Shown piece by piece: positions 22,044 to 32,000 of a DNA stretch of 32,000 nt. Both the position numbers and the translations under genes were made by a program. Within the stretch, counting starts at the first letter, position 1, and each line of letters opens with the position of its first letter. Source of the DNA: Gemmata obscuriglobus (GTDB taxonomy: Bacteria; Planctomycetota; Planctomycetia; Gemmatales; Gemmataceae); NCBI RefSeq assembly GCF_008065095.1, contig NZ_CP042911.1, forward strand, positions 3,600,001 to 3,632,000. The letters run 5' to 3'. Below the pieces are notes generated by a model. That model had not been told where the DNA came from and searched no databases. It saw only the letters and a program-made list of their open reading frames with translations.

Positions 22044-22117
<74 letters not shown>

Positions 22118-22124
22118 CTGACAT

Positions 22125-22156
22125 AACCCCGTGCGACGCACGGGGTTGTGTCTTTT
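22125..22156 (+). terminator. rho-independent terminator after tRNA-Arg
   Basis: AACCCCGTG, CGACG loop, CACGGGGTT, followed by GTGTCTTTT. Confidence 0.8.
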
Positions 22157-22216
22157 ACAGACCGTGCCCGATAACGGCCGGTGGTAACGCGGTGGCAACG
22201 ACGGACCGAAGCGGTT

Positions 22217-23302
22217 TCAGGGCTTAACTGGCGGGTTTAGAAAGCCTTCCATCACGGCCGCCGCCCGCTGCTGGTCGCCCGGCATGACGTGGGCGTAGTG
22301 CTTCAGGGTGGTCATCACGTCCGCGTGCCCGAGTCGCTCGCTCACCACCTTCAGCGGCACGTGTGCCCGGAGCAGGAGCGTCGCCATCGTGTGTCGCATG
22401 GTGTAGGGTGTAACCCATTCGAGGTCGGCTTTTTTCCGGATCGGGCCGAAGGGGCTCCGCAGGAAGTTCGACTGCCACCACGCCCCGCCCCGGCTGTCCG
22501 GCATCACCAGTTTCCCGGTCCACAGGGGCGGCCGTGCGGCCAGCATGGCGGCGACGGTGGACGGGGCCAGCTCGATCGTCCGCACCTTCCCCGTCTTCGT
22601 GTCCTTCCGCTCGTTGGTCACCCCGTCCTGTGCCCCGCTCACTTTGATCTCGCTCTTGTCGGGGTGGAAGTCGTCCCAGCAGAGGGCGAACATTTCCGCC
22701 GGCCGCAATCCGGCGTCGAGCCAAAGGCGGAAGGCGTAGCCGAGTTGGTGGAGCGATTCGGCGGCGGTCAGGAACGCCACGCACTGGTCCGGTAGCATGG
22801 CCCGCTTCTCGTCACGCTTCGGGTTGGGGAGCTTCAACTCTGCCATCGGGTTCACCGGGATGCGGCTGAACGCCACAGCGGACCCGAGGGCGTTCCGCAG
22901 TACGGCCCCCGCTTTCTGGCGTTCACTGTCGCTCTGCCCGTCGGTCGCCATCTGGGCGAGCATCAGCACGATCTTCTCGCGGGTGAGGTCGCGGAGCCGG
23001 GTCGAGCCGATCCGCGGTTTGAGGTGCGTGTCCACCCGCCACTTGTCGTGGCTGTAGGTCTTGTTCGAGATGTCCGGCTTCCGCATCTCCATCCAGGCGT
23101 CCAGCCACTCTCCGATAGTCCCGGCCGCCGCGGGCTGGTCCTGCCCCTTCAGCCAGTCCTGAGCGTCCTTTCGCGTGTCGAACGTTTTTGACGACCGCAA
23201 CAGTTCGTTGCCGACCTGCTTTGCCTTGCGGGCGAGGTACTTGCCGTTCGGCTTCTTCGTGATCCCGCCCTCTCCATTCCCCCGCTTCTGGCCTTTGGGC
23301 AT
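22217..23302 (-). CDS. int: tyrosine-type site-specific integrase
   Basis: ORF 22217..23389 trimmed to MPKGQKRG at 23302, with AGGAG 6 nt upstream. The catalytic region is LWLDAGLRPAE...TPYTMRHTMATLLL...LGHADVMTTLKHYAHV (R, HxxR, H and Y positions). The upstream in-frame extension runs through palindrome copy 1 and has poorer third-position GC. Confidence 0.9.
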   Translation of the reverse strand: MPKGQKRGNGEGGITKKPNGKYLARKAKQVGNELLRSSKTFDTRKDAQDWLKGQDQPAAAGTIGEWLDAWMEMRKPDISNKTYSHDKWRVDTHLKPRIGSTRLRDLTREKIVLMLAQMATDGQSDSERQKAGAVLRNALGSAVAFSRIPVNPMAELKLPNPKRDEKRAMLPDQCVAFLTAAESLHQLGYAFRLWLDAGLRPAEMFALCWDDFHPDKSEIKVSGAQDGVTNERKDTKTGKVRTIELAPSTVAAMLAARPPLWTGKLVMPDSRGGAWWQSNFLRSPFGPIRKKADLEWVTPYTMRHTMATLLLRAHVPLKVVSERLGHADVMTTLKHYAHVMPGDQQRAAAVMEGFLNPPVKP

Positions 23303-23314
23303 GTCGGGCTCCTG

Positions 23315-23338
23315 CGTGGTGGTCGCGCGACCACCACG
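23315..23338. repeat. element palindrome copy 1 (24-bp perfect palindrome CGTGGTGGTCGCGCGACCACCACG)
   Basis: Read directly from the sequence. On the minus strand it is followed by GCAGGAGCCCGAC and then the integrase ATG. Confidence 0.95.
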
Positions 23339-23402
23339 GTCAAAAAGAAACGCCGGTGCGATCTTGCACGGCGTCTTTAGAATGCGCACAATTGTCCACT
23401 AT

Positions 23403-23621
23403 TCAAGCTTGCTGATCCGGTTCGCGGACGCGAAACTCTTCGGTGCTCACACCCAACGCTGTTGCGAGTTGAACGATGGCAGACCACTTCGGTTCGTTGC
23501 GCCCCTGCTCCCAGTTCTCGATGGACCGGAGGGTGAGGTTCGCCAGTGAAGCAAGTTCCGTTTGCGACAAATTCCTCGCTTCTCTTAATTCCCGAAGTCG
23601 TTTTGCGAATTGATCTTGCAC
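23403..23621 (-). CDS. XRE-family HTH transcriptional regulator (candidate immunity repressor)
   Basis: ORF 23403..23690 trimmed to the GTG at 23621, with GGGGGAG 5 nt upstream. The HTH_3 pattern is FAKRLRELREARNLSQTELASLANLTLRSIENWEQGRNEPKWSAIVQLATALGVS. It is divergent from the rightward gene set. Confidence 0.85.
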   Translation of the reverse strand: MQDQFAKRLRELREARNLSQTELASLANLTLRSIENWEQGRNEPKWSAIVQLATALGVSTEEFRVREPDQQA

Positions 23622-23625
23622 GAAA

Positions 23626-23745
23626 ACTCCCCCAAAATGGGGATAATGGGCTTGTACTCCCCACATGTGGGGAGTATTCTTCCTACACACAGTGAACGTG
23701 CCATGTGTAGTGCTTCGTGCGTCACACTACCCGATTTTGGGGAGT
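23626..23745. promoter_or_regulatory. three related 20-bp dyad operators (7-6-7 architecture, consensus ACTCCCC-N6-GGGGAGT)
   Basis: O-a is 23626-23645 (ACTCCCC CAAAAT GGGGATA). O-b is 23656-23675 (ACTCCCC ACATGT GGGGAGT), the core of the perfect 22-bp palindrome TACTCCCCACATGTGGGGAGTA at 23655-23676. O-c is 23726-23745 (ACTACCC GATTTT GGGGAGT). Centre-to-centre distances are 30 and 70 bp. Confidence 0.65.
23652..23680 (+). promoter_or_regulatory. candidate rightward early promoter overlapped by operator O-b
   Basis: TTGTAC (23652-23657), 17-nt spacer, TATTCT (23675-23680). The spacer is almost entirely the O-b palindrome. Confidence 0.5.
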
Positions 23746-23840
23746 TACAAAACTCGACGCGTGTTCACTGAGTGCCGAAAGGGTCTCGCGTTTTTCAACG
23801 TGCCGGTCAGTGAAGCCAGATCGCCCAAATGAGTCGGAAC

Positions 23841-23856
23841 GTGGTCGCGCGACCAC
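23841..23856. repeat. element palindrome copy 2 (GTGGTCGCGCGACCAC)
   Basis: Perfect 16-mer. It lies 16 nt upstream of GTG 23873, with an AGGAG SD in between. Confidence 0.95.
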
Positions 23857-23872
23857 TTGGTAGGAGCCAACT

Positions 23873-24112
23873 GTGTCGAAGTTCACGCCCACCGCAGCCG
23901 ACGTGACGGAACTGCGGGACCGGTTGCAAGCGTCCCGCCCTGAACTGTCGCTGTCCCGATCGTGCGTGCGGGGCATTCTCGAAGGCTACATGCTCGAACG
24001 TGCCCTGTTCGGCCGTGCTTTGACGAACCCCGTTACCGGAGCCTCGCAATGTCCGCGACAAATGCCCTCGCTTACGAAGCCGGACTCACCAGCCCCGGCC
24101 CCGACGACGTGA
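23873..24112 (+). CDS. hypothetical small protein, first rightward gene (Cro-like position)
   Basis: GTG start at 23873, with AGGAG 6 nt upstream. Third-position GC is high through about 24040. The stop at 24110-24112 is followed after 1 nt by palindrome copy 3, the same layout as at other gene ends in the element. No family recognised. Confidence 0.5.
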   Translation: MSKFTPTAADVTELRDRLQASRPELSLSRSCVRGILEGYMLERALFGRALTNPVTGASQCPRQMPSLTKPDSPAPAPTT

Positions 24113-24113
24113 C

Positions 24114-24133
24114 CGGTGGTCGCGCGACCACCG
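24114..24133. repeat. element palindrome copy 3 (20-bp perfect palindrome CGGTGGTCGCGCGACCACCG)
   Basis: Starts 1 nt after the TGA at 24110-24112. Confidence 0.95.
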
Positions 24134-24141
24134 TCGCGTTC

Positions 24142-24516
24142 GTGTCGCCCCAGATGCGGAAGGCGGTGTTTGACTGCCGGTACGGTCGCCGGCTCACCGT
24201 GATCGTGCCCCGGTCCGCTTCGGCGGCGTTCGTCCACCTCGACGACCCGGACCGCACGAGCGACTTTCTCGGGTGGCGGGACAACCCGAGCCTGACGCTC
24301 GAAGCCGAAGACCCGGCACTGGTCCGGTTCTGTCGGCTCTGCGTCGAGGGGAGCATCAGCCCCAACGACCTCAGCTACTACTTCGAGCACCGCTGCCCGG
24401 TGGTGTCGGAGAGCGGGTGGCGGCGGACGCTCCTGCACGAGTGGTGCTCGAACGCCCGGCCGGTGGACCCGGTTTCCGCCCTCGCGGTCGAGTTGAACGC
24501 CACGGGAACGATGTGA
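24142..24516 (+). CDS. hypothetical protein
   Basis: This is the 3' part of ORF 23962..24516, and the start is uncertain. GTG 24142 and ATG 24154 lie after the palindrome but lack a clear SD. ATG 24049 has GGAG 7 nt upstream, but it would overlap the upstream ORF by 64 nt and place palindrome copy 3 in frame as GGRATT. No family recognised. Confidence 0.45.
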   Translation: MSPQMRKAVFDCRYGRRLTVIVPRSASAAFVHLDDPDRTSDFLGWRDNPSLTLEAEDPALVRFCRLCVEGSISPNDLSYYFEHRCPVVSESGWRRTLLHEWCSNARPVDPVSALAVELNATGTM

Positions 24517-24608
24517 GGCCATCAGGGCGGTTAGCCGGTGTAACTCCGGACCGGTCAGCCGCGGTTTCACCGCTCTGGCACCGTAGCGGGATGGGAACGG
24601 TGCGACTT

Positions 24609-24675
24609 GGTTCCTGGCTTGGTGCCGTGCGGCGGTGAGCGACGCCGCACCCCCGTTCGATTCGGGGCGGAACCT
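24609..24675 (+). other. tRNA-like cloverleaf (non-canonical) in a 263-bp non-coding gap
   Basis: Acceptor GGTTCCT (24609-24615) pairs with CGGAACC (24668-24674) for 6 of 7 bp. There is a canonical T arm CCCCG-TTCGATT-CGGGG (24651-24667) with the G53-C61 equivalent, and a mini D arm GGC-TTGGT-GCC. The central arm has an 8-bp stem and an 8-nt loop (GTGCGGCG-GTGAGCGA-CGCCGCAC), so there is no standard anticodon loop. Confidence 0.3.
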
Positions 24676-24779
24676 CTGGGCGGGCCGGGTAGACCGGCGG
24701 TGATAGGGCTCCACCGCCGGCGACGCGTGACGCATGGGCCACGCGCCCCGGCCCGCCTCCTCGCAAGGAGTTCGACGAC

Positions 24780-24989
24780 ATGCCTACCGTCCCCCAGATC
24801 CCGTTGCCCGCGGGCGACCGCTGGATGCAGACCCGCGAGCTGGCCCAGTTGTTCGGGCTCAACGCCGAGACGATCAACCGCTGGCGGCGGACGGGCAGAC
24901 TCAAGGGCTACCCGGTCGGGAAGATGTTCTGGTACAAGCGGTCCGACGTGAACGTCCTGCTCGAAGCGATGAAGCTGCCCACCATCTGA
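24780..24989 (+). CDS. excisionase/AlpA-like helix-turn-helix DNA-binding protein
   Basis: 69 aa, with AAGGAG 9 nt upstream. The pattern TRELAQLFGLNAETINRWRRTGRLKGYPVGKMFWYKRSDVNVLLE matches the excisionase-family (MerR-like HTH_17) domain. Confidence 0.75.
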   Translation: MPTVPQIPLPAGDRWMQTRELAQLFGLNAETINRWRRTGRLKGYPVGKMFWYKRSDVNVLLEAMKLPTI

Positions 24990-24990
24990 A

Positions 24991-25006
24991 GTGGTCGCGC
25001 GACCAC
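24991..25006. repeat. element palindrome copy 4 (GTGGTCGCGCGACCAC)
   Basis: Starts 1 nt after the TGA of the excisionase-like gene (24987-24989). Confidence 0.95.
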
Positions 25007-25039
25007 CCGCGGGCCTTCCATAAGTAAGTGGCGGCACCA

Positions 25040-26227
25040 ATGGCACGAACCGAAGAGAGCCAGCGGCGGGAGGCCGACCGCAAGGAAGGCTGGAACGCCC
25101 GCCGGTGGTACGAGGGGATCATGGCGAAGCAGAAGACGCACATGGGCGGGGCGGTTACCGAAACCGAACTGCTGATCGCGAACATCGACCGGTCCGTGAC
25201 GCAGGAGGTGCGGTCGGTCCTCGATCAGGCGACCGTGGACCTGTACGCCGAGACCGAGGACGAGTGGTCCGCCACGGCCCCCGTGGACGTGTGGTGGGAC
25301 GGGGCCAAGGCGTGCTACGCCAGCGACGGCGGGCACCGGATCGCGGCGAAGGAGAAGAACGGCCGCAAGAAGATCCTGTGCCGGGTCCACCGGTGCGACG
25401 ACGCCGAATCGGCCCTGACGCTGGCCCGGCTCCACGCCTTCGGCCCGGCGAACCACGCCCACGGCCGGGCCAGGACGCCGGAAGACAAGCGGAAGACGGT
25501 CCGGTCGTGCATCGCACTCCCCGAGTACGCGGGCGAGAGCGACCGCCGCATCGCCGAGATCTGCAAGGTCGGCAAGTGGCTGGTCGGGCAGGTGCGGGCG
25601 GAAATCGCGGGGGCTCCGAAGCCGGCCCCGCGGACGGTCAAGGCCGATTCGCCGCCGAAGCCCGCCCCCACGCCGGCGAGTGGTCGCGCGACCACTGCGG
25701 AAGAACGCGTCATCGAGTCCCTCACGAAACCCGGTGTCGTCGAGAAGCTGGTCGAGCGGCTCGAATCGGAAGACATCGTTGAGTCGCCGGAGGTGGTCGC
25801 GCGGCCACCGGCCAAGGAACACAAGGCCCTGACGGATGCCCGCGGGCGGGTGGTTCCCGAGCCGATGGTGTCGCTGTTCCGGCTCGGGCGGGCGTTTGCG
25901 GCGGACTTGCGGGGCGTGCTGCACGAGGCGGCCGACGGGGTCAAATCGGCCGCAGAAGAGTCGTGGGGCATCGGGCTGGCCCAGATGGTGCCGACGCTCG
26001 AGGCGGACTTGAAGAAGGTCGCACAGGACGCAGCGGCTTCTCTTCCGTGGTGTTGCTGCCCGCACGTCGATCAGGCGACCGGCGAACACCTCGTCGAGGG
26101 CAAGTGCCGGGTGTGCATCAACAACCGGGGCTGGCTGACCCGCCACAACTGGCACCAGCTCGGCGACCCCATCAAACAACTGATCGACGAGCACGCGGAG
26201 CCGGACGCCGAGCGCGAAGACGCCTGA
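25040..26227 (+). CDS. ParB-like N-terminal (ParB/Srx) domain protein with HTH, Pro/Ala-rich linker and Cys-rich C-terminus
   Basis: ATG at 25040, with an in-frame GTG alternative at 25028. The ParB-like core is ASDGGHRIAAKEKNGRKKILCRVH. The HTH-like segment is ESDRRIAEICKVGKWLVGQVRAEI. The C-terminus is WCCCPHVD...GKCRVCINNRGW. It contains palindrome copy 5 (read SGRATT) and decayed copy 6 (read VVARPP) in frame. Confidence 0.65.
   Translation: MARTEESQRREADRKEGWNARRWYEGIMAKQKTHMGGAVTETELLIANIDRSVTQEVRSVLDQATVDLYAETEDEWSATAPVDVWWDGAKACYASDGGHRIAAKEKNGRKKILCRVHRCDDAESALTLARLHAFGPANHAHGRARTPEDKRKTVRSCIALPEYAGESDRRIAEICKVGKWLVGQVRAEIAGAPKPAPRTVKADSPPKPAPTPASGRATTAEERVIESLTKPGVVEKLVERLESEDIVESPEVVARPPAKEHKALTDARGRVVPEPMVSLFRLGRAFAADLRGVLHEAADGVKSAAEESWGIGLAQMVPTLEADLKKVAQDAAASLPWCCCPHVDQATGEHLVEGKCRVCINNRGWLTRHNWHQLGDPIKQLIDEHAEPDAEREDA
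25679..25696. repeat. element palindrome copy 5 (18-bp AGTGGTCGCGCGACCACT), intragenic
   Basis: In frame in the ParB-like CDS, read as S-G-R-A-T-T. Confidence 0.95.
25792..25809. repeat. element palindrome copy 6, decayed (GGTGGTCGCGCGGCCACC, one A to G change at 25804), intragenic
   Basis: In frame in the ParB-like CDS, read as V-V-A-R-P-P. Confidence 0.8.
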
Positions 26228-26273
26228 CCTCGGACGGACCAGTGGCTAATCGGGTCGAGCAGGAGCAGAGCAG

Positions 26274-28109
26274 ATGATTACCCCGCGCCCCTACCAGAAG
26301 CAGAGTGTGGACCGGGTGTTCGGGCGGTTCGACGCGGGCGAGCCGTCCACGCTCGTGATCCTGCCGACCGGCTGCGGCAAGACGGTCGTGTTCGGGCTGG
26401 TGTCGCAGCAGTGGGCGCGAGAGTGCCGGCCGGGACGGGTGCTGGTGCTCGCCCACCGGGACGAGTTGATCCAGCAGGCGGCCGAAGAGCTACAGGGCAT
26501 CACCGGGTCCGCCCCGGCGATCGAACAGGCGGACCGGTACGCGGTCCCAGCGGGCGGGAGCATGGGGGACGCCCCGTCGGTCGTGGTCGGGAGCGTCCAG
26601 ACGCTGTGCCGGGACCGCCGGCTCGCTCGCTGGCCGAAGGACGAGTTCGGGCTGATCGTCACGGACGAGTGCCACCACGCGACCAGCCCGAGCTACCGGA
26701 AGATCTACGACCACTTCGGGGCGGCGAAGCGGCTGGGCGTGACGGCCACGCCGAAGCGGGCCGACGACCTCGCACTCGGGCACGTGTTCGGGTCCGTGGC
26801 GTTCGACATGGGCATCTGCGACGCGGTGGACGAGGGTTGGCTGTGCCCCGTCGAGCAGCGGTACGTGACGGTCAACGGGATGGACCTGTCGGCGGTGAAA
26901 ACGGCCGGCGACGACTTCTCGGACGGGGCGATCGGGGCCGTGCTGTCCGGCGACTCGGTGCTCGATCAGATGGTCGCGGCGACCATCGAATTGTGCGGCG
27001 ACGAGCCGACGCTGATCTTCACCGCCCCGCGGCCCCCGGGCGAGCAGGTGAGTCAGGGCGATCTGTTCGCGGACGCCCTGAACAAGATCAAGCCGGAGCG
27101 GGCCGTGTTCCTATCCGGCGAGACGGACAAGGACGTGCGGCGGCGGGAGATCGAGCTGTTCGAGCGGGGCGAGCGGCAGTTCCTGGTCGGGTGCAGCTTG
27201 TTCACGGAGGGGTTCAATGTTCCCAAGATCAGCCGGGTGGTCATGGCTCGTCCGACGAAATCGAACGCTTACTACACTCAGGCGATCGGCCGCGGCACAC
27301 GGACTCTACGCGGCACTCTGCATCCTGACCTCGCCACGCCGGAAGCCCGACGGGCGGCGATCGCCGCGTCCGCCAAGCCGTCCGTCCTCGTGATCGACTT
27401 CGTGGGGAACAGCGGCCGGCACAAGCTCATCTCGGCGGTGGACATCTTCGCCGGCAACCACCCGCAATCGGTGGTGGACCGGGCCAAGCGGAACGCCGCG
27501 AACGACGCCGCCAAGGGGCTGCACCGGGACGTGAAGCAGGTGCTGGACGAGGCGGCCCGCGAGGAGCGGAAGGAGGCGGCCGAGCGGCGGCGGAAGGAGA
27601 AGAAGGCCCGGGTGAAGGTGAACCGGGTGGACATGCACCAGCAGACCGTGGACCCGTTCGCGGCCAGCGACGCCCCGGGCCAGCGGGACCGGCTCGCCAG
27701 CGGCAGCGGTCGCGCGACCGCCACCCAGATCGAGTGGATCCGGACCCACGGCGGGTACTGCTCCGACACCGTGACGGCGAACGATGCCGGGGCCATCATC
27801 GCGGACATGAAGGACCGCTGGTCCCGCAAGCTGTGCAGCCCGAAGCAGGAGCGGACACTGAAGCGGGCGGGCGTGGCGGACGGCCCGGTCCCGAAGGACC
27901 ACGCCAAGGCCCTGCTCGACTGGCTCGCGGCCCGCAACTGGCGATCGACCGGGCGGCCGACGCGGAAGCAGTTGGGGATCCTGCGGAGCGAGTCGGGCGA
28001 CGGGTTTCAGCTCACGATCGACGGGCAGCGGGTCGGGCAGGTGATGCGGAGCGTGGACGCGGTGCGGGCGGCGTACCGCGGGCTGGCGGCGGAACCGGTG
28101 GTGGCGTAA
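26274..28109 (+). CDS. SF2 DEAD/DEAH-box helicase (type III restriction Res-like) with a C-terminal extension
   Basis: AGGAG upstream. Motif I is LPTGCGKT, motif II is VTDECHH, motif III is GVTATP, and motif VI is YTQAIGRGTR. A charged low-complexity segment (EERKEAAERRRKEKKARVK) is followed by palindrome copy 7 in frame (SGRATAT) before a 130-aa tail. Confidence 0.85.
   Translation: MITPRPYQKQSVDRVFGRFDAGEPSTLVILPTGCGKTVVFGLVSQQWARECRPGRVLVLAHRDELIQQAAEELQGITGSAPAIEQADRYAVPAGGSMGDAPSVVVGSVQTLCRDRRLARWPKDEFGLIVTDECHHATSPSYRKIYDHFGAAKRLGVTATPKRADDLALGHVFGSVAFDMGICDAVDEGWLCPVEQRYVTVNGMDLSAVKTAGDDFSDGAIGAVLSGDSVLDQMVAATIELCGDEPTLIFTAPRPPGEQVSQGDLFADALNKIKPERAVFLSGETDKDVRRREIELFERGERQFLVGCSLFTEGFNVPKISRVVMARPTKSNAYYTQAIGRGTRTLRGTLHPDLATPEARRAAIAASAKPSVLVIDFVGNSGRHKLISAVDIFAGNHPQSVVDRAKRNAANDAAKGLHRDVKQVLDEAAREERKEAAERRRKEKKARVKVNRVDMHQQTVDPFAASDAPGQRDRLASGSGRATATQIEWIRTHGGYCSDTVTANDAGAIIADMKDRWSRKLCSPKQERTLKRAGVADGPVPKDHAKALLDWLAARNWRSTGRPTRKQLGILRSESGDGFQLTIDGQRVGQVMRSVDAVRAAYRGLAAEPVVA
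26971..26985. repeat. possible degenerate copy: 15-bp odd-centred palindrome TGGTCGC-G-GCGACCA, intragenic
   Basis: It uses the same 7-nt half-sites as the family but has one extra central base. It lies in the helicase CDS, read as M-V-A-A-T-I. Confidence 0.5.
27706..27721. repeat. element palindrome copy 7, symmetric variant (GCGGTCGCGCGACCGC), intragenic
   Basis: The core GGTCGCGCGACC is intact. The second and fifteenth positions changed together (T to C and A to G), so the 16-mer is still a perfect palindrome. It is read S-G-R-A-T-A in the helicase CDS. Confidence 0.9.
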
Positions 28110-28129
28110 AAGTGGTCGCGCGACCACTT
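28110..28129. repeat. element palindrome copy 8 (20-bp AAGTGGTCGCGCGACCACTT)
   Basis: The 16-mer starts 2 nt after the helicase TAA (28107-28109) and ends 16 nt before ATG 28144. Confidence 0.95.
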
Positions 28130-28143
28130 AGGGGAGAGCACCA

Positions 28144-28359
28144 ATGAAGACGGCTGAACAGATGATGGCCGAGTTGAACGCCACCAGAGCCGCACTCGGT
28201 TTGGTGCCCGTCACCCGGCCGAACAGTGGCTATTGCCATTCCGGACGCGATGGCGACTGCAACGACGGTGAGTGTCCTCAACTGAGAGACGGCGAACCGG
28301 AGAAGACCGGTCGCCACTGCCCGCTCGATATGCACGACGACGAACGCGGTTACCAGTAG
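28144..28359 (+). CDS. small Cys-rich hypothetical protein
   Basis: 71 aa with a GGGGAGAG SD. It is bracketed by palindrome copies 8 and 9. The Cys/His pattern is YCHSGRDGDCNDGECP...GRHCP. Confidence 0.55.
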   Translation: MKTAEQMMAELNATRAALGLVPVTRPNSGYCHSGRDGDCNDGECPQLRDGEPEKTGRHCPLDMHDDERGYQ

Positions 28360-28360
28360 T

Positions 28361-28378
28361 AGTGGTCGCGCGACCACT
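28361..28378. repeat. element palindrome copy 9 (18-bp AGTGGTCGCGCGACCACT)
   Basis: The 16-mer starts 2 nt after the TAG (28357-28359) and ends 16 nt before ATG 28394. Confidence 0.95.
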
Positions 28379-28393
28379 TCGGGAGGGCTCCGG

Positions 28394-28765
28394 ATGCCGT
28401 GCTTCTGGTGCGACCGATTCGGGGTGCGGCTCACCCGAGACCACGTGAAGCCGCGGTGTGCGGGCGGCGGGGACGAGGACAACATCGTCATGGCGTGCGA
28501 CGGGTGTCAGGCGTCGCGGAACCAGATCCAGCAGTACTACACGAACGCCAAGGTGTTGCGGTTCAAAGTCGCGATCCGGTGGCCGGACGCGGGCCGCCGC
28601 CACAAGGAGCAGATCCGCCGGATGCGGGCGACGCTCCTCAAGCAACTGTCCGGCGTCCTCACTCTGGTGGCGTTCTGGACCCAGCGGGAAACGGACCGCT
28701 GGGGGAGCAGCCCGACCGCCGCACTCGACCTGACCGTTCCGGACCTGCCGAAGCGGAGGGCGTGA
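28394..28765 (+). CDS. HNH endonuclease
   Basis: GGGAGGG SD 6 nt upstream. The HNH core is CFWCDRFGVRLTRDHVKPRCAGGGDEDNIVMACDGCQASRN. Confidence 0.8.
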   Translation: MPCFWCDRFGVRLTRDHVKPRCAGGGDEDNIVMACDGCQASRNQIQQYYTNAKVLRFKVAIRWPDAGRRHKEQIRRMRATLLKQLSGVLTLVAFWTQRETDRWGSSPTAALDLTVPDLPKRRA

Positions 28766-28768
28766 CCG

Positions 28769-29317
28769 ATGGATCGTGAGGCGTTGCTGCGGGTGATTGC
28801 GATGCACCCGCACGAGAACACGCCACGGCTCGAGTACGCCGACTGGCTCATGCAATACGGCTCTTGCGACCGCGACGCCGCAACTTCCGAGTTCATTCGG
28901 ATGTCCTGCTCCGTCGGGTGCCGGCAGAAGCGGATGCCATACGAGGTGTACGGGTGGCTGATCAAGAACTGGCACCGTCTCGTCCCGAAGTCTCTGGCGG
29001 TCGGGGTGCCGGTCGAGAGCGGGCCAACGCCACAACAGGGGTGGCGGATCAACTGGCACAACGGGCGGAAGAAAGAGGTTCTCATCCGTCTGGCTCGCCT
29101 CCCGCCGAAACGTGGTGGTTACCGACCGTTCAAGGTAGTGTTCGACTTCGCCTTCGGGTTCTTGGACCGGTGCGAGACGTGGAGCCCGGTTTCTTTCGGG
29201 CAACTGAAGCAGCCGCTCCTCGCCGACCAGCCGCTCTGCAAGGTCATGTGTCATGGCACGACGAGACATCCCCAACGGGTTCGGTCACTACTCGGCGGTG
29301 CTGGAGCGGATCTGTGA
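28769..29317 (+). CDS. TIGR02996-domain protein (Gemmata-type repeat-companion N-terminal domain)
   Basis: GGAGGG SD 8 nt upstream. The N-terminus (REALLRVIAMHPHENTPRLEYADWLMQYG...SEFIRMSC) matches the TIGR02996 pattern (L..I...P.DD.PRLVYADWLEE.GD..RAEFIR.Q). The 3' end overlaps the next ORF by 65 nt. Confidence 0.65.
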   Translation: MDREALLRVIAMHPHENTPRLEYADWLMQYGSCDRDAATSEFIRMSCSVGCRQKRMPYEVYGWLIKNWHRLVPKSLAVGVPVESGPTPQQGWRINWHNGRKKEVLIRLARLPPKRGGYRPFKVVFDFAFGFLDRCETWSPVSFGQLKQPLLADQPLCKVMCHGTTRHPQRVRSLLGGAGADL

Positions 29318-30260
29318 GTACCGCCCGGCGGGCCGGTGGGTCCAGTTCCAGTGCCTCCTGCCGCACCGCCACAAGAACGGCGACGCCCACTGGTCGGGGC
29401 TCGCGTGGATCGGCGACAAGGGCGAACTGGTCGCCCGGTGTCAGGGGTGCGGGGCCGGGTTCAAGGAGCTTGTGGACGCCGTCGGGCTCCCCCAGACCGA
29501 GTGGTTCCCGGACAAGGGTCGCAGGTACGAGTTCGCCAACAAAGGTGGTCGCGCGACCACCGCAAAACAGGAGCCGGAGCCCGTGTCAGACCCCGTCGCA
29601 ATCTACCAGTACCGGGACGAAGCGGGCGAACTGCTGTTCGAGAAGCTGCGGTACGAGCCGAAGCGGTTCCAGTGCCGCCGGCCGACGCCAGCGGACGTGC
29701 GGCGGCGGGCGGACATCTCGGACGGGGTCGTGTCGTGGGTGTGGGGCGTGAGCGAGGGGATCTACTCCCGGCCGTCGCGGGACGGGGCGTGGGATCTGGT
29801 GCCGGCCCGCCACGACCACCAGATCGCGGTGAAGGTCGATGAGTGCCGGCGGGTGCTGTACCGGCTCCCGGAGCTGCTCGCCGCGAACAAGGAAGCCCCG
29901 GTGTTCCTGGTCGAGGGCGAGAAGGACGTGGAAACGCTCAAGTCGCTGGGGCTCACCGCGGTCTGCACGTGGGCCGGGTCGGGCAGCGTGGACCCGGCGT
30001 GGCTGCTGCCGCTGGTGGACCGGCGGGTGGTGGTGGTGCCGGACAACGACGAGGTCGGGCGGTCGCACGCGATGCGGTGCGTTGGGTGGCTGGTGTGCGG
30101 GGGCGTCCGCTCGGTGCGGGTGCTGTGGCCGGGCGAGTGCGGCTACGACCCGGCCCCGGGCGGCGACATCTCCGACTGGCTGGCCGCTCAGGACCCGGAC
30201 GGCGGCGGGGCGAAGGCGTCGCTGATCGAACTGTGCAAGCGGGCTCACGAGTACAAGTGA
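29253..30260 (+). CDS. DNA primase-like protein (CHC2-type zinc finger + Toprim domain)
   Basis: The Zn finger is FQCLLPHRHKNGDAHW...ARCQGCGAGF. Toprim motifs are VFLVEGEKDVETL and VVVVPDNDEVGRSHA. Palindrome copy 10 lies in frame (KGGRATTA) between the finger and the core. The start is uncertain because of the overlap with the upstream ORF; an alternative GTG is at 29298. Confidence 0.75.
   Translation: MARRDIPNGFGHYSAVLERICEYRPAGRWVQFQCLLPHRHKNGDAHWSGLAWIGDKGELVARCQGCGAGFKELVDAVGLPQTEWFPDKGRRYEFANKGGRATTAKQEPEPVSDPVAIYQYRDEAGELLFEKLRYEPKRFQCRRPTPADVRRRADISDGVVSWVWGVSEGIYSRPSRDGAWDLVPARHDHQIAVKVDECRRVLYRLPELLAANKEAPVFLVEGEKDVETLKSLGLTAVCTWAGSGSVDPAWLLPLVDRRVVVVPDNDEVGRSHAMRCVGWLVCGGVRSVRVLWPGECGYDPAPGGDISDWLAAQDPDGGGAKASLIELCKRAHEYK
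29544..29561. repeat. element palindrome copy 10 (18-bp GGTGGTCGCGCGACCACC), intragenic
   Basis: In frame in the primase-like CDS, read as G-G-R-A-T-T. Confidence 0.95.
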
Positions 30261-30262
30261 AC

Positions 30263-30276
30263 TGGTCGCGCGACCA
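30263..30276. repeat. element palindrome copy 11 (14-bp TGGTCGCGCGACCA)
   Basis: The 16-nt window 30262-30277 starts 1 nt after the primase TGA (30258-30260). The outer pair is mismatched (C/C). Confidence 0.9.
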
Positions 30277-30302
30277 CTTTGGATACGGGGAGAACGCCAC
30301 CG

Positions 30303-32000
30303 ATGACGAGCGACTACGGCGAGTTTTTGCGGTCGAAGGTGCGGGCGGTCGAGCCGGCGGGGTTCGAGAACGGGCGGCTCCCGAAGGGCCTGTTCCCGCA
30401 CCAGCGGGCGATCGTGAAGTGGGCGTGCCGGATGGGCCGCGGGGCGGTCTTCGCCGACACCGGGCTCGGCAAAACGCTGATGCTGCTCGCGTGGGCGGAT
30501 CAGGTGTACCGCCGCACCGATCGGCCGGTGCTGGTGCTGACGCCGCTCGCAGTCGCTGAGCAGACGGCAGAAGAGGCGAAGAGATTTGGGATCGAAGGCG
30601 TTTTCCGAACCGACTCGCCCGCCGGCTACGTCGATTACTCCCGGGTCGTGGTCACGAACTACCAGAAGCTGCACCGGTTCGACCCGTCCGCCTTCGGTGG
30701 CGTTGTTCTGGATGAGAGTTCGATCCTCAAGAGCCACGACGGGGCGTACCGCAAGGCCCTGACGGAGGCGTTCGCGGCCACGCCGTACAAGCTGTGCTGC
30801 ACCGCGACCCCGGCCCCGAACGACCACACCGAGATCGGCACCCACGCCGAGTTCTTGGGCGTGATGAGCCGGACGGAGATGCTCGCCACCTACTTCGTTC
30901 ACGACTCGGGCGACACGTCGGAGTGGCGGCTGAAGGGGCACGCGGTCCGCGACTTCTGGCGGTGGGTCGCGTCGTGGGCGGTGCTGTGCCGGCGGCCGTC
31001 CGACCTGGGGTTCAGTGACGAGGGGTACGAACTGCCCCCGCTCCGCGTCCACGAGGTCGAGATCGAGACCGCCGCCCAGGCGGGCGTACTGTTCGCGACC
31101 GCGGAGACCACGCTCGCCGGCCAGCGGGCGGCCCGGAAGGAGTCGATGGATGGTCGCGCGACCACGTCCGCCCGGATCGCGAACGAGCCCGGCCCGTGCG
31201 TTGTGTGGGCGGAACTGAACGCCGAAGCCGACGCGGTTCAGGAACTGATTCCGGACGCGGTGCAGGTCGCGGGGGCGGACAAGGACGAGGACAAGCTGTC
31301 GCGGCTGAAGGGGTTCGCGGCTGGAACACACCGGGTGCTGGTCACCAAGACCACCGTGGCCGGGTTCGGGCTCAACTGGCAGCACTGCCGCCGCATGGTG
31401 TTCGTGGGGCTGTCGAACAGCTACGAGCAGTTCTATCAGGCGGTTCGGCGGTGCTGGCGGTTCGGCCAGACGGGGCCGGTGGACGTGTACCTGATCGGCA
31501 CGGCCCGCGACGCCGGGGTGTGGGCGAACATCGCCCGCAAGCAGCGGGACCACGAGGCGATGGTCGAGGGGATGCTACAGCACACCCGGGACGTGAACCG
31601 CGAACAACTGGGGGCGACCGTGAAGCAGACCGACGAGTACCGGACGGGCCGGACCGGGGGCAAGACCGACGCGTGGATGATCCACCTCGGGGACTGCGTG
31701 GAAACGCTCCGCGGGTTCGACCCGGAGTGCGTCGATTACAGCCTGTTCTCGCCCCCGTTCGCGTCGCTCTACACGTACAGCAACTCGCCGCGGGACATGG
31801 GCAACTGCGGCACCTACGCCGAGTTCGCGGCCCACTTCGGGTTCCTCGTGGCGGAACTGTACCGCGTGCTGAAGCCGGGGCGGCTGGTGTCCTTCCACTG
31901 CATGAACCTGCCGACCACGAAAGAGCACCACGGGTACATCGGGATCCAGGACTTCCGCGGCGACCTGATCCGGCAGTTCCAAGCCGCGGGGTTCATCTAC
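30303..32000 (+). CDS. SNF2-family helicase fused to an N4/N6 DNA methyltransferase (partial, continues past the window end)
   Basis: Absent from the supplied ORF track because no stop is reached; translated by hand from the ATG at 30303 (GGGGAGA SD). Helicase motifs are FADTGLGKTLMLLAWA, VVLDESSILK, CCTATPAPND, LVTKTTVAGFGLNWQ and FYQAVRRCWRFGQ. From about 31680 the beta-class amino-methyltransferase start is HLGDCVETL...VDYSLFSPPFASLY. Palindrome copy 12 lies in frame (DGRATT) between the two helicase lobes. Confidence 0.8.
   Translation, partial: MTSDYGEFLRSKVRAVEPAGFENGRLPKGLFPHQRAIVKWACRMGRGAVFADTGLGKTLMLLAWADQVYRRTDRPVLVLTPLAVAEQTAEEAKRFGIEGVFRTDSPAGYVDYSRVVVTNYQKLHRFDPSAFGGVVLDESSILKSHDGAYRKALTEAFAATPYKLCCTATPAPNDHTEIGTHAEFLGVMSRTEMLATYFVHDSGDTSEWRLKGHAVRDFWRWVASWAVLCRRPSDLGFSDEGYELPPLRVHEVEIETAAQAGVLFATAETTLAGQRAARKESMDGRATTSARIANEPGPCVVWAELNAEADAVQELIPDAVQVAGADKDEDKLSRLKGFAAGTHRVLVTKTTVAGFGLNWQHCRRMVFVGLSNSYEQFYQAVRRCWRFGQTGPVDVYLIGTARDAGVWANIARKQRDHEAMVEGMLQHTRDVNREQLGATVKQTDEYRTGRTGGKTDAWMIHLGDCVETLRGFDPECVDYSLFSPPFASLYTYSNSPRDMGNCGTYAEFAAHFGFLVAELYRVLKPGRLVSFHCMNLPTTKEHHGYIGIQDFRGDLIRQFQAAGFIY
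31151..31164. repeat. element palindrome copy 12 (14-bp TGGTCGCGCGACCA), intragenic
   Basis: In frame in the SNF2-methyltransferase CDS, read as D-G-R-A-T-T. Confidence 0.9.

Follow-up and report, generated by a model that had tools for sequence, protein, structure and literature searches.

What does a short palindrome do when it stands directly behind one stop codon after another in a prophage, and what might read it? This question is raised by a 32,000-nt stretch of the Gemmata obscuriglobus chromosome (contig NZ_CP042911.1, positions 3,600,001 to 3,632,000; hereafter the window, with positions counted from its first nucleotide), the right-hand part of which is occupied by the prophage. A search for the 16-mer GTGGTCGCGCGACCAC with up to two mismatches returned 12 matches in the window against 0.83 expected, and none of 100 shuffled sequences reached 12. 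All 12 copies lie within the prophage (23319-31165), and the host DNA to its left, 23 kb in length, is free of the motif. We tentatively favour the explanation that the 16-mer is a dispersed operator or roadblock-like DNA site for a putative phage protein.

Palindrome copies and their placement relative to genes

A reading of this DNA made earlier from the sequence alone had reported five junctions at which the palindrome begins 1-2 nt after a stop codon (24112, 24989, 28109, 28359 and 30260), and re-reading of the sequence bore out each distance given, with a range of 1-3 nt. Copy 3 (24116-24131) belongs to a 20-bp palindrome (24114-24133) that begins 1 nt after the stop codon 24110-24112, with an 18-mer beginning 2 nt after it, and copy 4 (24991-25006) follows the stop at 24989 by 1 nt. 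Copies 8 (28112-28127, within a 20-bp palindrome AAGTGG...CCACTT) and 9 (28362-28377) stand 2 nt after the stops at 28109 and 28359, respectively, whereas copy 11 (30262-30277, one mismatch, CTGG...) stands 1 nt after the stop at 30260 and 25 nt before ATG 30303. The 16-mer likewise ends exactly 16 nt before three start codons, as had been noticed: GTG 23873 of the first early gene (copy 2, 23841-23856), ATG 28144 (copy 8) and ATG 28394 (copy 9). The same spacing recurs on the opposite strand, where copy 1 (23319-23334, inside the 24-bp perfect palindrome 23315-23338) precedes the integrase ATG (23302) by 16 nt, with GCAGGAGCCCGAC in between.

Other copies lie within genes. The gene of a ParB-like protein carries two in its linker, namely copy 5 (25680-25695), which encodes S-G-R-A-T-T and keeps its position in relatives, and copy 6 (25793-25808), which has one mismatch (GGCCAC arm). 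Copy 7 (27706-27721), in the helicase gene, has undergone two symmetric, compensatory changes to GCGGTCGCGCGACCGC; the site, at which it encodes G-R-A-T, is conserved in every relative. Copy 10 (29545-29560) is located in the linker of a primase-like gene (G-G-R-A-T-T), and copy 12 (31150-31165) has one mismatch and is read in the G-R-A-T frame.

We compared nine metagenome contigs carrying relatives of the helicase, using automated gene calls and exact-core copies for the intergenic and intragenic counts, and a set of 30 junctions between co-directional genes from five elements for the distances. Intergenic DNA accounts for 41 of 78 copies, though it makes up only 3.5-16% of the sequence; the remaining copies, about 47%, are intragenic and occupy conserved positions. 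The 16-mer begins no more than 2 nt past the stop codon in 19 of the 30 junctions and no more than 5 nt past it in 24 (p<5e-6 against uniform placement of the site in the available gap). The order of stop codon, palindrome, Shine-Dalgarno sequence (SD) and start codon described for the window is real, and it is conserved in five related elements. A fixed register with translation signals had also been proposed, and only its upstream half stands: the palindrome-to-stop distance of 0-5 nt is the constant register in relatives, whereas the following start codon is found 9 to 97 nt away (13 to 94 nt in the 30 junctions), 13-16 nt being only the mode (12 of 30). The SD follows 4-8 nt past the palindrome, and the stop codon often forms the outermost part of the extended palindrome, e.g. 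TGACCGGTCGCGCGACCGGTCA in L026. Some copies are located between convergent genes and near attP, and nearly all copies of L030 are intragenic by gene calls.

Junctions that lack the motif had been described as either tightly packed or structured. This holds in part, since the 46-nt junction 26228-26273 between the ParB-like gene and the helicase gene, not mentioned at the time, is also without the motif, and the structure proposed at 24517-24779 folds only marginally better than shuffled sequences (z = -1.8). The latter is a 263-nt GC-rich gap without a palindrome between orfB and the gene for an HTH_17 protein; the corresponding gap measures 82 nt in L022 and 110 nt in L189.

The genes for the helicase, the primase-like protein, the methyltransferase and the beta clamp carry a copy directly 3' of the stop codon in all relatives, regardless of the gene that comes next. 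Variable genes are enclosed by two copies. For example, the slot behind the helicase gene, bounded by a copy on either side, holds orf71, a dNTP pyrophosphohydrolase gene or orf81, and its content in L031 and in L022 differs from that in the window. The same layout, with one palindrome before the start and another after the stop, is found inverted around a minus-strand gene of L001 (14056-14235). Such exchanges are what one would expect of a recombination or module-boundary element similar to the T4 promoter early stem-loop or to attC, or of a selfish mobile palindrome that spreads by copy-and-paste into permissive slots like the repetitive extragenic palindromes (REPs) and the Rickettsia palindromic elements (RPEs). 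Two further features point the same way: a 17-nt unit after the xis stop is apparently cleanly present in the window and absent in L031, and both the unit of ORF (open reading frame) plus 3' palindrome and the in-frame linker copies resemble attC cassettes and RPEs. At the junction orthologous to copy 4, the motif is missing in L031 and is replaced by a class-C variant (see below) in L189. However, copies of 16-24 bp are far shorter than known recombinase sites or miniature inverted-repeat transposable elements, the regions read revealed neither a RAYT nor an IS200-like transposase, and perfect conservation at orthologous positions combined with concerted change argues for a function of each site rather than selfish turnover. 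Moreover, a copy is present at most gapped junctions, so that replaced genes would by default have copies on both sides. We consider this explanation improbable.

Lineage-specific palindromes and concerted change

Relatives of the helicase at 44-76% identity were found in metagenomes only. Helicase identity never exceeded 35% among deposited phages, where no cultured relative of the prophage was found, and a scan of GTDB genomes with the helicase profile recovered only distant relatives (at most 48% identity). Among these metagenomic relatives, the contigs L022, L023, L026 and L031 (helicase identity 56-69%) share the core GGTCGCGCGACC, with 4-17 copies each. By contrast, L003, L029 and L189 carry GGCCGCGCGGCC (class C), which differs by a symmetric T-to-C plus A-to-G change in every copy, L188 has 13 copies of TGGTCG-CA/TG-CGACCA, and L030 has the palindrome GGTGACAACGTTGTCACC with the core GTGACAACGTTGTCAC. 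The variant palindromes GGCCGCGCGGCC, TGGTCGCACGACCA and GTGACAACGTTGTCAC occupy orthologous positions in related phages. Some more distant IMG/VR relatives possess palindromes of their own, such as CTCGGAATTCCGAG and TCGCCA-N-TGGCGA, whereas most have none. Finally, a scan of IMG/VR with TGGTCGCGCGACCA gave 85 matches, 84 of which carry one or two copies and are presumably due to chance; the only many-copy match, and the only true relative, is L162, a terminase-encoding contig whose 14 kb contain 17 copies, including six in a single 1438-aa ORF.

The conserved part of the motif is a perfect palindrome of 12-18 bp. Its core, including what would be the loop of a hairpin, is uniform within each genome and changes in concert between lineages. 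Orthologous positions are retained across lineages whose proteins have diverged by about 50%, despite the changed sequence: copies are found after the stops of the helicase, primase, methyltransferase and polIII-beta genes, as well as in the linkers of the ParB-like, helicase and primase proteins. The intragenic copies keep a fixed relative position of 0.53-0.58 in the ParB-like gene, including L030 and L188 with their differing motifs, of 0.67-0.78 in the helicase gene and of 0.26-0.29 in the primase-like gene. These sites are variable Pro/Ala-rich linkers, in which the core is usually read GGT CGC GCG ACC and translated as G-R-A-T. Uniformity within genomes, concerted symmetric change and retention of positions together point to co-evolution with a sequence-specific reader, which would be expected neither of structure alone nor of a selfish repeat.

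Several contigs show local peculiarities of the motif. Three slightly degenerate copies stand in tandem in L030 (1591-1670, 35-bp spacing, GGGGTG-ACAACGTTG-..CACCC); they resemble an operator, iteron or centromere array and are a possible primary binding locus. The longest of all copies lies inside a 34-bp perfect palindrome of L162 (5479-5512, ATACCGCAGGTGGTCGCGCGACCACCTGCGGTAT), between the 1438-aa ORF and the next gene. The motif centre in L188 is asymmetric (GCAC vs GTGC), and GCAC is the sense-strand reading of each of the three intergenic copies anchored at a stop, whereas the intragenic copies mostly read GTGC, keeping G-R-A-T; these cases are too few for an orientation test. L026 (12316-12531) and L028 also contain a second repeat, GTCGGCTGCGGA, whose roughly 18 copies lie in the gene that follows that of the helicase. 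At the contig end, these form a tandem coding repeat of 12/24 nt, which proved unrelated to the palindrome.

The motif occurs about once per kb throughout the phage genome, late genes included: the Logan contig L001, which continues the element of the window, has 20 copies in 16 kb, and the late region of the same phage in contig L187 has five in 7 kb. This density in early and late regions alike would also suit a hairpin in single-stranded DNA, or a cruciform, used in replication as a priming or loading signal for the phage primase and helicases, placed on either strand at roughly the spacing of Okazaki fragments. The element does encode a primase-like protein, two SF2 helicases and a beta clamp, some copies are perfect palindromes of 24-34 bp, and TGGTC matches a T7 primase recognition site, a lead only. 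On the other hand, GTC is absent from the corresponding place in the class C and class N motifs, most copies extend little past 14-16 bp, and the spacing is irregular, with gaps of up to about 1.9-2.3 kb. We also know of no precedent in which priming requires an invariant 16-bp palindrome, and a replication signal appears very improbable to us.

A DNA site weighed against an RNA hairpin

The sequence-only reading had preferred a role at the RNA level, tied to the register of translation. This preference does not hold, given that about half of the copies are intragenic, the core changes in concert, C·A mismatches outnumber G·U pairs, no U-tract follows and the distance to the start varies. The proposed 6-bp stem next to the SD shrinks to 4-5 bp in several relatives. 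Much of the evidence agrees with the other option offered there, namely a DNA site placed at boundaries between modules. A sequence-specific DNA site is favoured by uniformity of the motif within genomes, its concerted change, the lack of G·U bias and of a U-tract, and the copies inside long ORFs. Variant copies read on the sense strand contain 25 C·A against 12 G·U combinations, i.e. no RNA-type wobble bias. The palindromes of L003 and L029 rarely extend beyond 12-14 bp, leaving a would-be stem of often 4-5 bp, which is too short for a stable hairpin and adequate for the site of a dimer. Flank preferences mirror each other in seven of eight genomes.

According to the explanation we favour, a dimeric and most likely phage-encoded protein would recognise the dyad-symmetric 16-mer sequence-specifically, and this single factor would act along the whole phage genome via the dispersed copies. 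Its most likely action would be that of a transcription roadblock, silencer or genome organiser, similar to the conserved inverted repeats (CIRs) of phage phiC31, the L5 stoperators and the KorB OB sites. Copies would accumulate where a fixed 16 bp costs nothing, namely directly past stop codons and in interdomain linkers, where they are read as G-R-A-T. The order of stop codon, 0-5 nt, palindrome, SD and start could then be ascribed to genome compaction, the gap before the site being dispensable and the ribosome-binding region being kept intact. Transcribed into RNA, the site would fold and draw the stop codon and the SD together, which may be harmless to translational coupling.

Known RNA signals and promoters give no simple account of the palindrome. 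A terminator scan found six terminator-like sites against 4.2 ± 1.9 in shuffled sequences, i.e. no excess, and one of them coincides with a palindrome, on the antisense strand. An intrinsic (Rho-independent) terminator was rejected: the location just past the stop codon agrees with one (24 of 30 within 5 nt), but no U-tract follows the palindromes, the right flanks being typically TT or ATT. Rfam yielded no family match except the tRNA. A promoter was rejected as well, since no sigma-70-like sites were found and 13-16 nt to the start are too short for a -10 element plus leader.

Several observations weigh against the DNA-site explanation. Complementarity of the two flanks within copies exceeds permutation in L001 (p = 2e-4) and L026 (p = 4e-4), and pooled flank pairing reaches 65.1% of cells against 60.3 ± 0.8%, a value attained in none of 500 shuffles, which suggests that the potential to form a hairpin or cruciform has been under some selection. 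Such covariation was not seen in five other genomes, and L022 is full of "hybrid" flanks. Moreover, stop anchoring is directional, which a symmetric DNA site does not itself explain; that compaction is responsible we infer. Different palindromes, of the CCCCA..TGGGG type, occupy the divergent region that separates the cI-like gene from the first early gene. Finally, the ParB-like protein, a candidate for the reader, is encoded directly upstream of the helicase in most relatives, including about 40 loci without a recurrent palindrome (profile hidden Markov model search), and its predicted recognition helix in L189, a class-C genome, is nearly identical to that of class T (CGKWLVGDVR and VGKWLVGQVR, respectively).

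Directional anchoring and flank covariation in two genomes keep an RNA or structural component alive. The corresponding alternative is an RNA hairpin at the 3' end of a cistron or gene block, acting as an mRNA stabiliser, a processing site, a weak factor-dependent terminator or a stop-SD fold that preserves coupling; its reader might be an RNA-binding protein or nuclease of the phage. Besides the highly significant anchoring to the upstream stop and the covariation in L001 and L026, this explanation can draw on the conserved genes that retain a copy past their stop regardless of the next gene, on stop codons lying often within the extended stem, on the SD 4-8 nt beyond the palindrome, and on predicted free energies of -8 to -21 kcal/mol. 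Perfect arms are also longer in intergenic than in intragenic copies (2.7 vs 1.8 extra bp, p = 0.013). However, it has to contend with the intragenic copies at conserved positions (including six in one ORF and nearly all of those in L030), with copies between convergent genes and near attP, and with a core whose "loop" is invariant within a genome, which structure alone does not require. The ratio of C·A to G·U, the 4-5 bp stems of L003 and L029 and the lack of both a U-tract and terminator enrichment count against it as well. We regard an RNA hairpin as unlikely, if better placed than the other alternatives.

A further possibility is a phage "punctuation" system of a kind not described so far, in which a specificity factor co-evolving with its site would read the hairpin-capable palindrome at the 3' end of every gene block and in domain linkers. 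We hold this to be rather improbable; if true, the system would delimit gene and domain cassettes that can be exchanged, or set transcript boundaries that depend on a protein, across an entire Planctomycete phage genome, and would be akin in function to attC sites or factor-dependent terminators, with a 16-bp site.

Returning to the putative DNA-binding reader, the immunity repressor is an unlikely one because the cI/cro control region has palindromes of a different sequence. These comprise ACTCCCCCAAAATGGGGA, the 22-bp perfect palindrome TACTCCCCACATGTGGGGAGTA and a third, related half-palindrome (23626-23676 and 23729-23747); they are absent from the rest of the window and probably serve as immunity operators. 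The ParB-like protein, a 395-aa product (25040-26227, plus strand), combines a ParB/Srx-like N domain with a Zn-ribbon and a predicted HTH, as judged from profile comparison and alignment. Its family profile matches sulfiredoxin, ParB and Noc chains in PDB, in the N domain only (E = 5e-5 to 3e-3); Pfam ParB_N matches two of 11 family members, and the HTH was deduced from the alignment. The protein lacks the canonical GERRxRA CTP-binding box and has an invariant D-G-x-H-R instead (D96, G97, H99, R100). When elements are ranked by this protein, classes T and C are interleaved, which indicates that the motif class has switched independently. Its role as the binder is not borne out by the palindrome-less loci or the recognition helix, and it stays a candidate only. 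The alignment of the HTH_17 protein was uninformative on the identity of the reader, and phylogenetic profiling of genes against palindrome-positive loci recovered only clade membership (primase, beta clamp, sigma factor).

The prophage, its genes and comparable systems

The element in the window is a complete temperate phage, present as a prophage integrated in a tRNA-Arg gene of G. obscuriglobus. The attachment site is tRNA-Arg(ACG) (22044-22118, plus strand; ARAGORN, Rfam), and the junction between phage and host is located within it at about 22072. Contig L187, from G. obscuriglobus assembly LR593888, is 99.4% identical to window 22072-29339. Late genes (Gp77-like, S8 peptidase) adjoin position 22072 on the left in this contig, where identity with the window starts, which places the att crossover inside the tRNA and shows the phage to be complete. 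Positions 1-7032 of L187 are thus phage late DNA rather than host DNA, forming an attP-type junction that suggests an excised or tandem prophage or an assembly mis-join in LR593888. The right side of L187 breaks at window position 29339, and many of its genes are frameshifted.

Two genes are transcribed leftward, encoding a tyrosine integrase (22217-23302; Pfam Phage_integrase, E = 1.8e-16) and a 72-aa cI-like repressor of the XRE/RstR type (23403-23621; identified from its translation and the NCBIfam RstR family, E = 1.4e-13). On the plus strand, the position of Cro is taken by orf79 (23873-24112, GTG start), an uncertain gene call without a homologue, followed by orfB (24154-24516), the start of which could be 24049, 24142 or 24154. 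An automated gene call, 24049-24516, replaces this arrangement and would make copy 3 intragenic. Homology of the downstream gene to L022 begins only at about 24169, so the orf79 annotation is plausible but unproven.

The early genes from the HTH_17 protein to a SNF2-methyltransferase fusion form a rightward operon. The HTH_17 (Xis/MerR-like) protein (24780-24989; Pfam, E = 4.2e-8) and the ParB-like protein are followed by the SF2 helicase (26274-28109; ResIII/DEAD and Helicase_C in Pfam), which has an exact match in a G. obscuriglobus assembly and is identical in the assemblies of this species (L002 = ABGO01000282). Two helicase homologues of 960 aa, P0014 and P0018, are about 350 aa longer and contain the intein/homing-endonuclease Pfam domains PF05203/PF05204 and PF14528, suggesting intein insertion in this helicase family. 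Between two palindrome copies lies orf71 (28144-28359), a variable "cassette" gene as judged from slot comparison. It is followed by genes for an HNH endonuclease-like protein (28394-28765; weak Pfam matches to HNH_5 and HNH, homologue in L031) and a TIGR02996-domain protein (28769-29317; NCBIfam, E = 8.3e-18). The TIGR02996 (rpt_mate_G_obs) family is otherwise known as a repeat-companion domain of the Gemmata chromosome; here it is encoded by a prophage, with a homologue in L031. A primase-like protein with a Zn-finger and a Toprim domain (29253-30260; PHROG DNA primase, E = 1e-14) comes next, its start at 29253 being backed by orthologue alignments that begin there. The SNF2 helicase/N6_N4 methyltransferase fusion (from 30303 past the window end at 32000) measures 752 aa in L001. 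All these genes from the HTH_17 gene onward lie on the plus strand. A check of gene boundaries by homology supported those of the helicase, HNH, TIGR02996, primase-like and HTH_17 genes, and gave no support for orf79.

Among phage systems with dispersed sites, the CIR of phiC31 is a highly conserved inverted repeat of about 17 bp, present in about 18 mostly intergenic copies bound by the repressor c. The Gemmata motif is likewise a conserved inverted repeat dispersed over the genome of a temperate phage from a high-GC host. It differs from CIRs in being denser, about half intragenic and, where intergenic, abutting stop codons; moreover, repressor binding has been shown for CIRs, whereas the Gemmata binder is only putative and the immunity region has different palindromes. 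With respect to the sequence shared with the immunity operator that marks CIRs and stoperators, copy 2 lies 16 nt before the first early gene, and the palindromes of the cI/cro region differ from it. Dispersed repressor sites number 18-30 per genome in phiC31 and L5 (PMC4557955). The stoperators of Cluster A phages, L5 among them, with 20 to 30 or more copies mostly in short intergenic spaces, block transcription elongation when bound by repressor (PMC4557955, PMC4351075). The Gemmata copies are similarly numerous and mainly found in short intergenic spaces (41 of 78). However, a stoperator is an asymmetric 13-mer that is bound by a monomer and follows the orientation of transcription, whereas the Gemmata site is a perfect palindrome with symmetric flanks and is therefore not a member of the stoperator family.

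Cluster O mycobacteriophages contain 17-bp dyad repeats, TGTTCGGNNNCCGAACA, in more than 30 invariant copies per genome, 14 of 34 being intergenic and about a third located in coding regions, and encode ParB-like domain proteins (PMC4351075). The two systems share an invariant dyad-symmetric 16-17-mer in tens of copies per phage genome, some of them intragenic. The Cluster O repeat has a 3-bp variable spacer and belongs to phages of another host phylum, and neither stop anchoring nor concerted change between lineages is reported there. Cluster K phages have start-associated sequences (SAS) and their extended form (ESAS), in which an asymmetric 13-mer containing the SD stands just upstream of the start in one orientation (PMC3203893). 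These are also short repeated motifs, closely tied to translation starts, whereas the Gemmata palindrome does not include the SD and takes its register from the upstream stop. Being symmetric and not linked to the start, it is not a member of the SAS family.

Plasmid RK2 carries 12 OB sites for KorB, and the ParB-parS, KorB-OB and Noc-NBS systems use dispersed, perfect palindromes of 13-16 bp with conserved centres. The Gemmata element combines a multi-copy palindrome of this size with a protein that has a ParB/Srx-like N domain and a predicted HTH. It differs in that this protein has a DG-HR motif rather than GERRxRA and a recognition helix that does not track the motif class; furthermore, an element that integrates needs no partition system. 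REPs and bacterial interspersed mosaic elements are imperfect, extragenic and found chromosome-wide in the host, where they can stabilise upstream mRNA, and attC sites span 57-141 bp with defined R and L boxes. The Gemmata palindrome resembles both in standing immediately 3' of ORFs, tight to the stop and at a variable distance from the next start. Unlike REPs, it has no copies in the 23-kb host flank, is about 47% intragenic and has no RAYT transposase in the regions read; unlike attC, it is a perfect palindrome of 12-18 bp rather than an imperfect one of 57-141 bp with R''/L''-L'/R' boxes.

A literature search found no paper on Gemmata phage palindromes. Stop-codon abutment, conserved copies embedded in linkers and concerted compensatory change across lineages appear to be undocumented before. 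By analogy, the motif resembles the phiC31 CIRs, the L5 stoperators and the Cluster O repeats, and may be of the same general kind, from a new phylum, Planctomycetota; to our knowledge, nothing is known about gene regulation in phages of this phylum. The motif marks how far this prophage family extends and is a sensitive probe for relatives, and the identity of its reader could also explain the dyad repeats of the Cluster O mycobacteriophages. Conserved positions, concerted symmetric change and stop abutment together make the family a clean natural experiment in the co-evolution of a cis element, its reader and the coding sequence.

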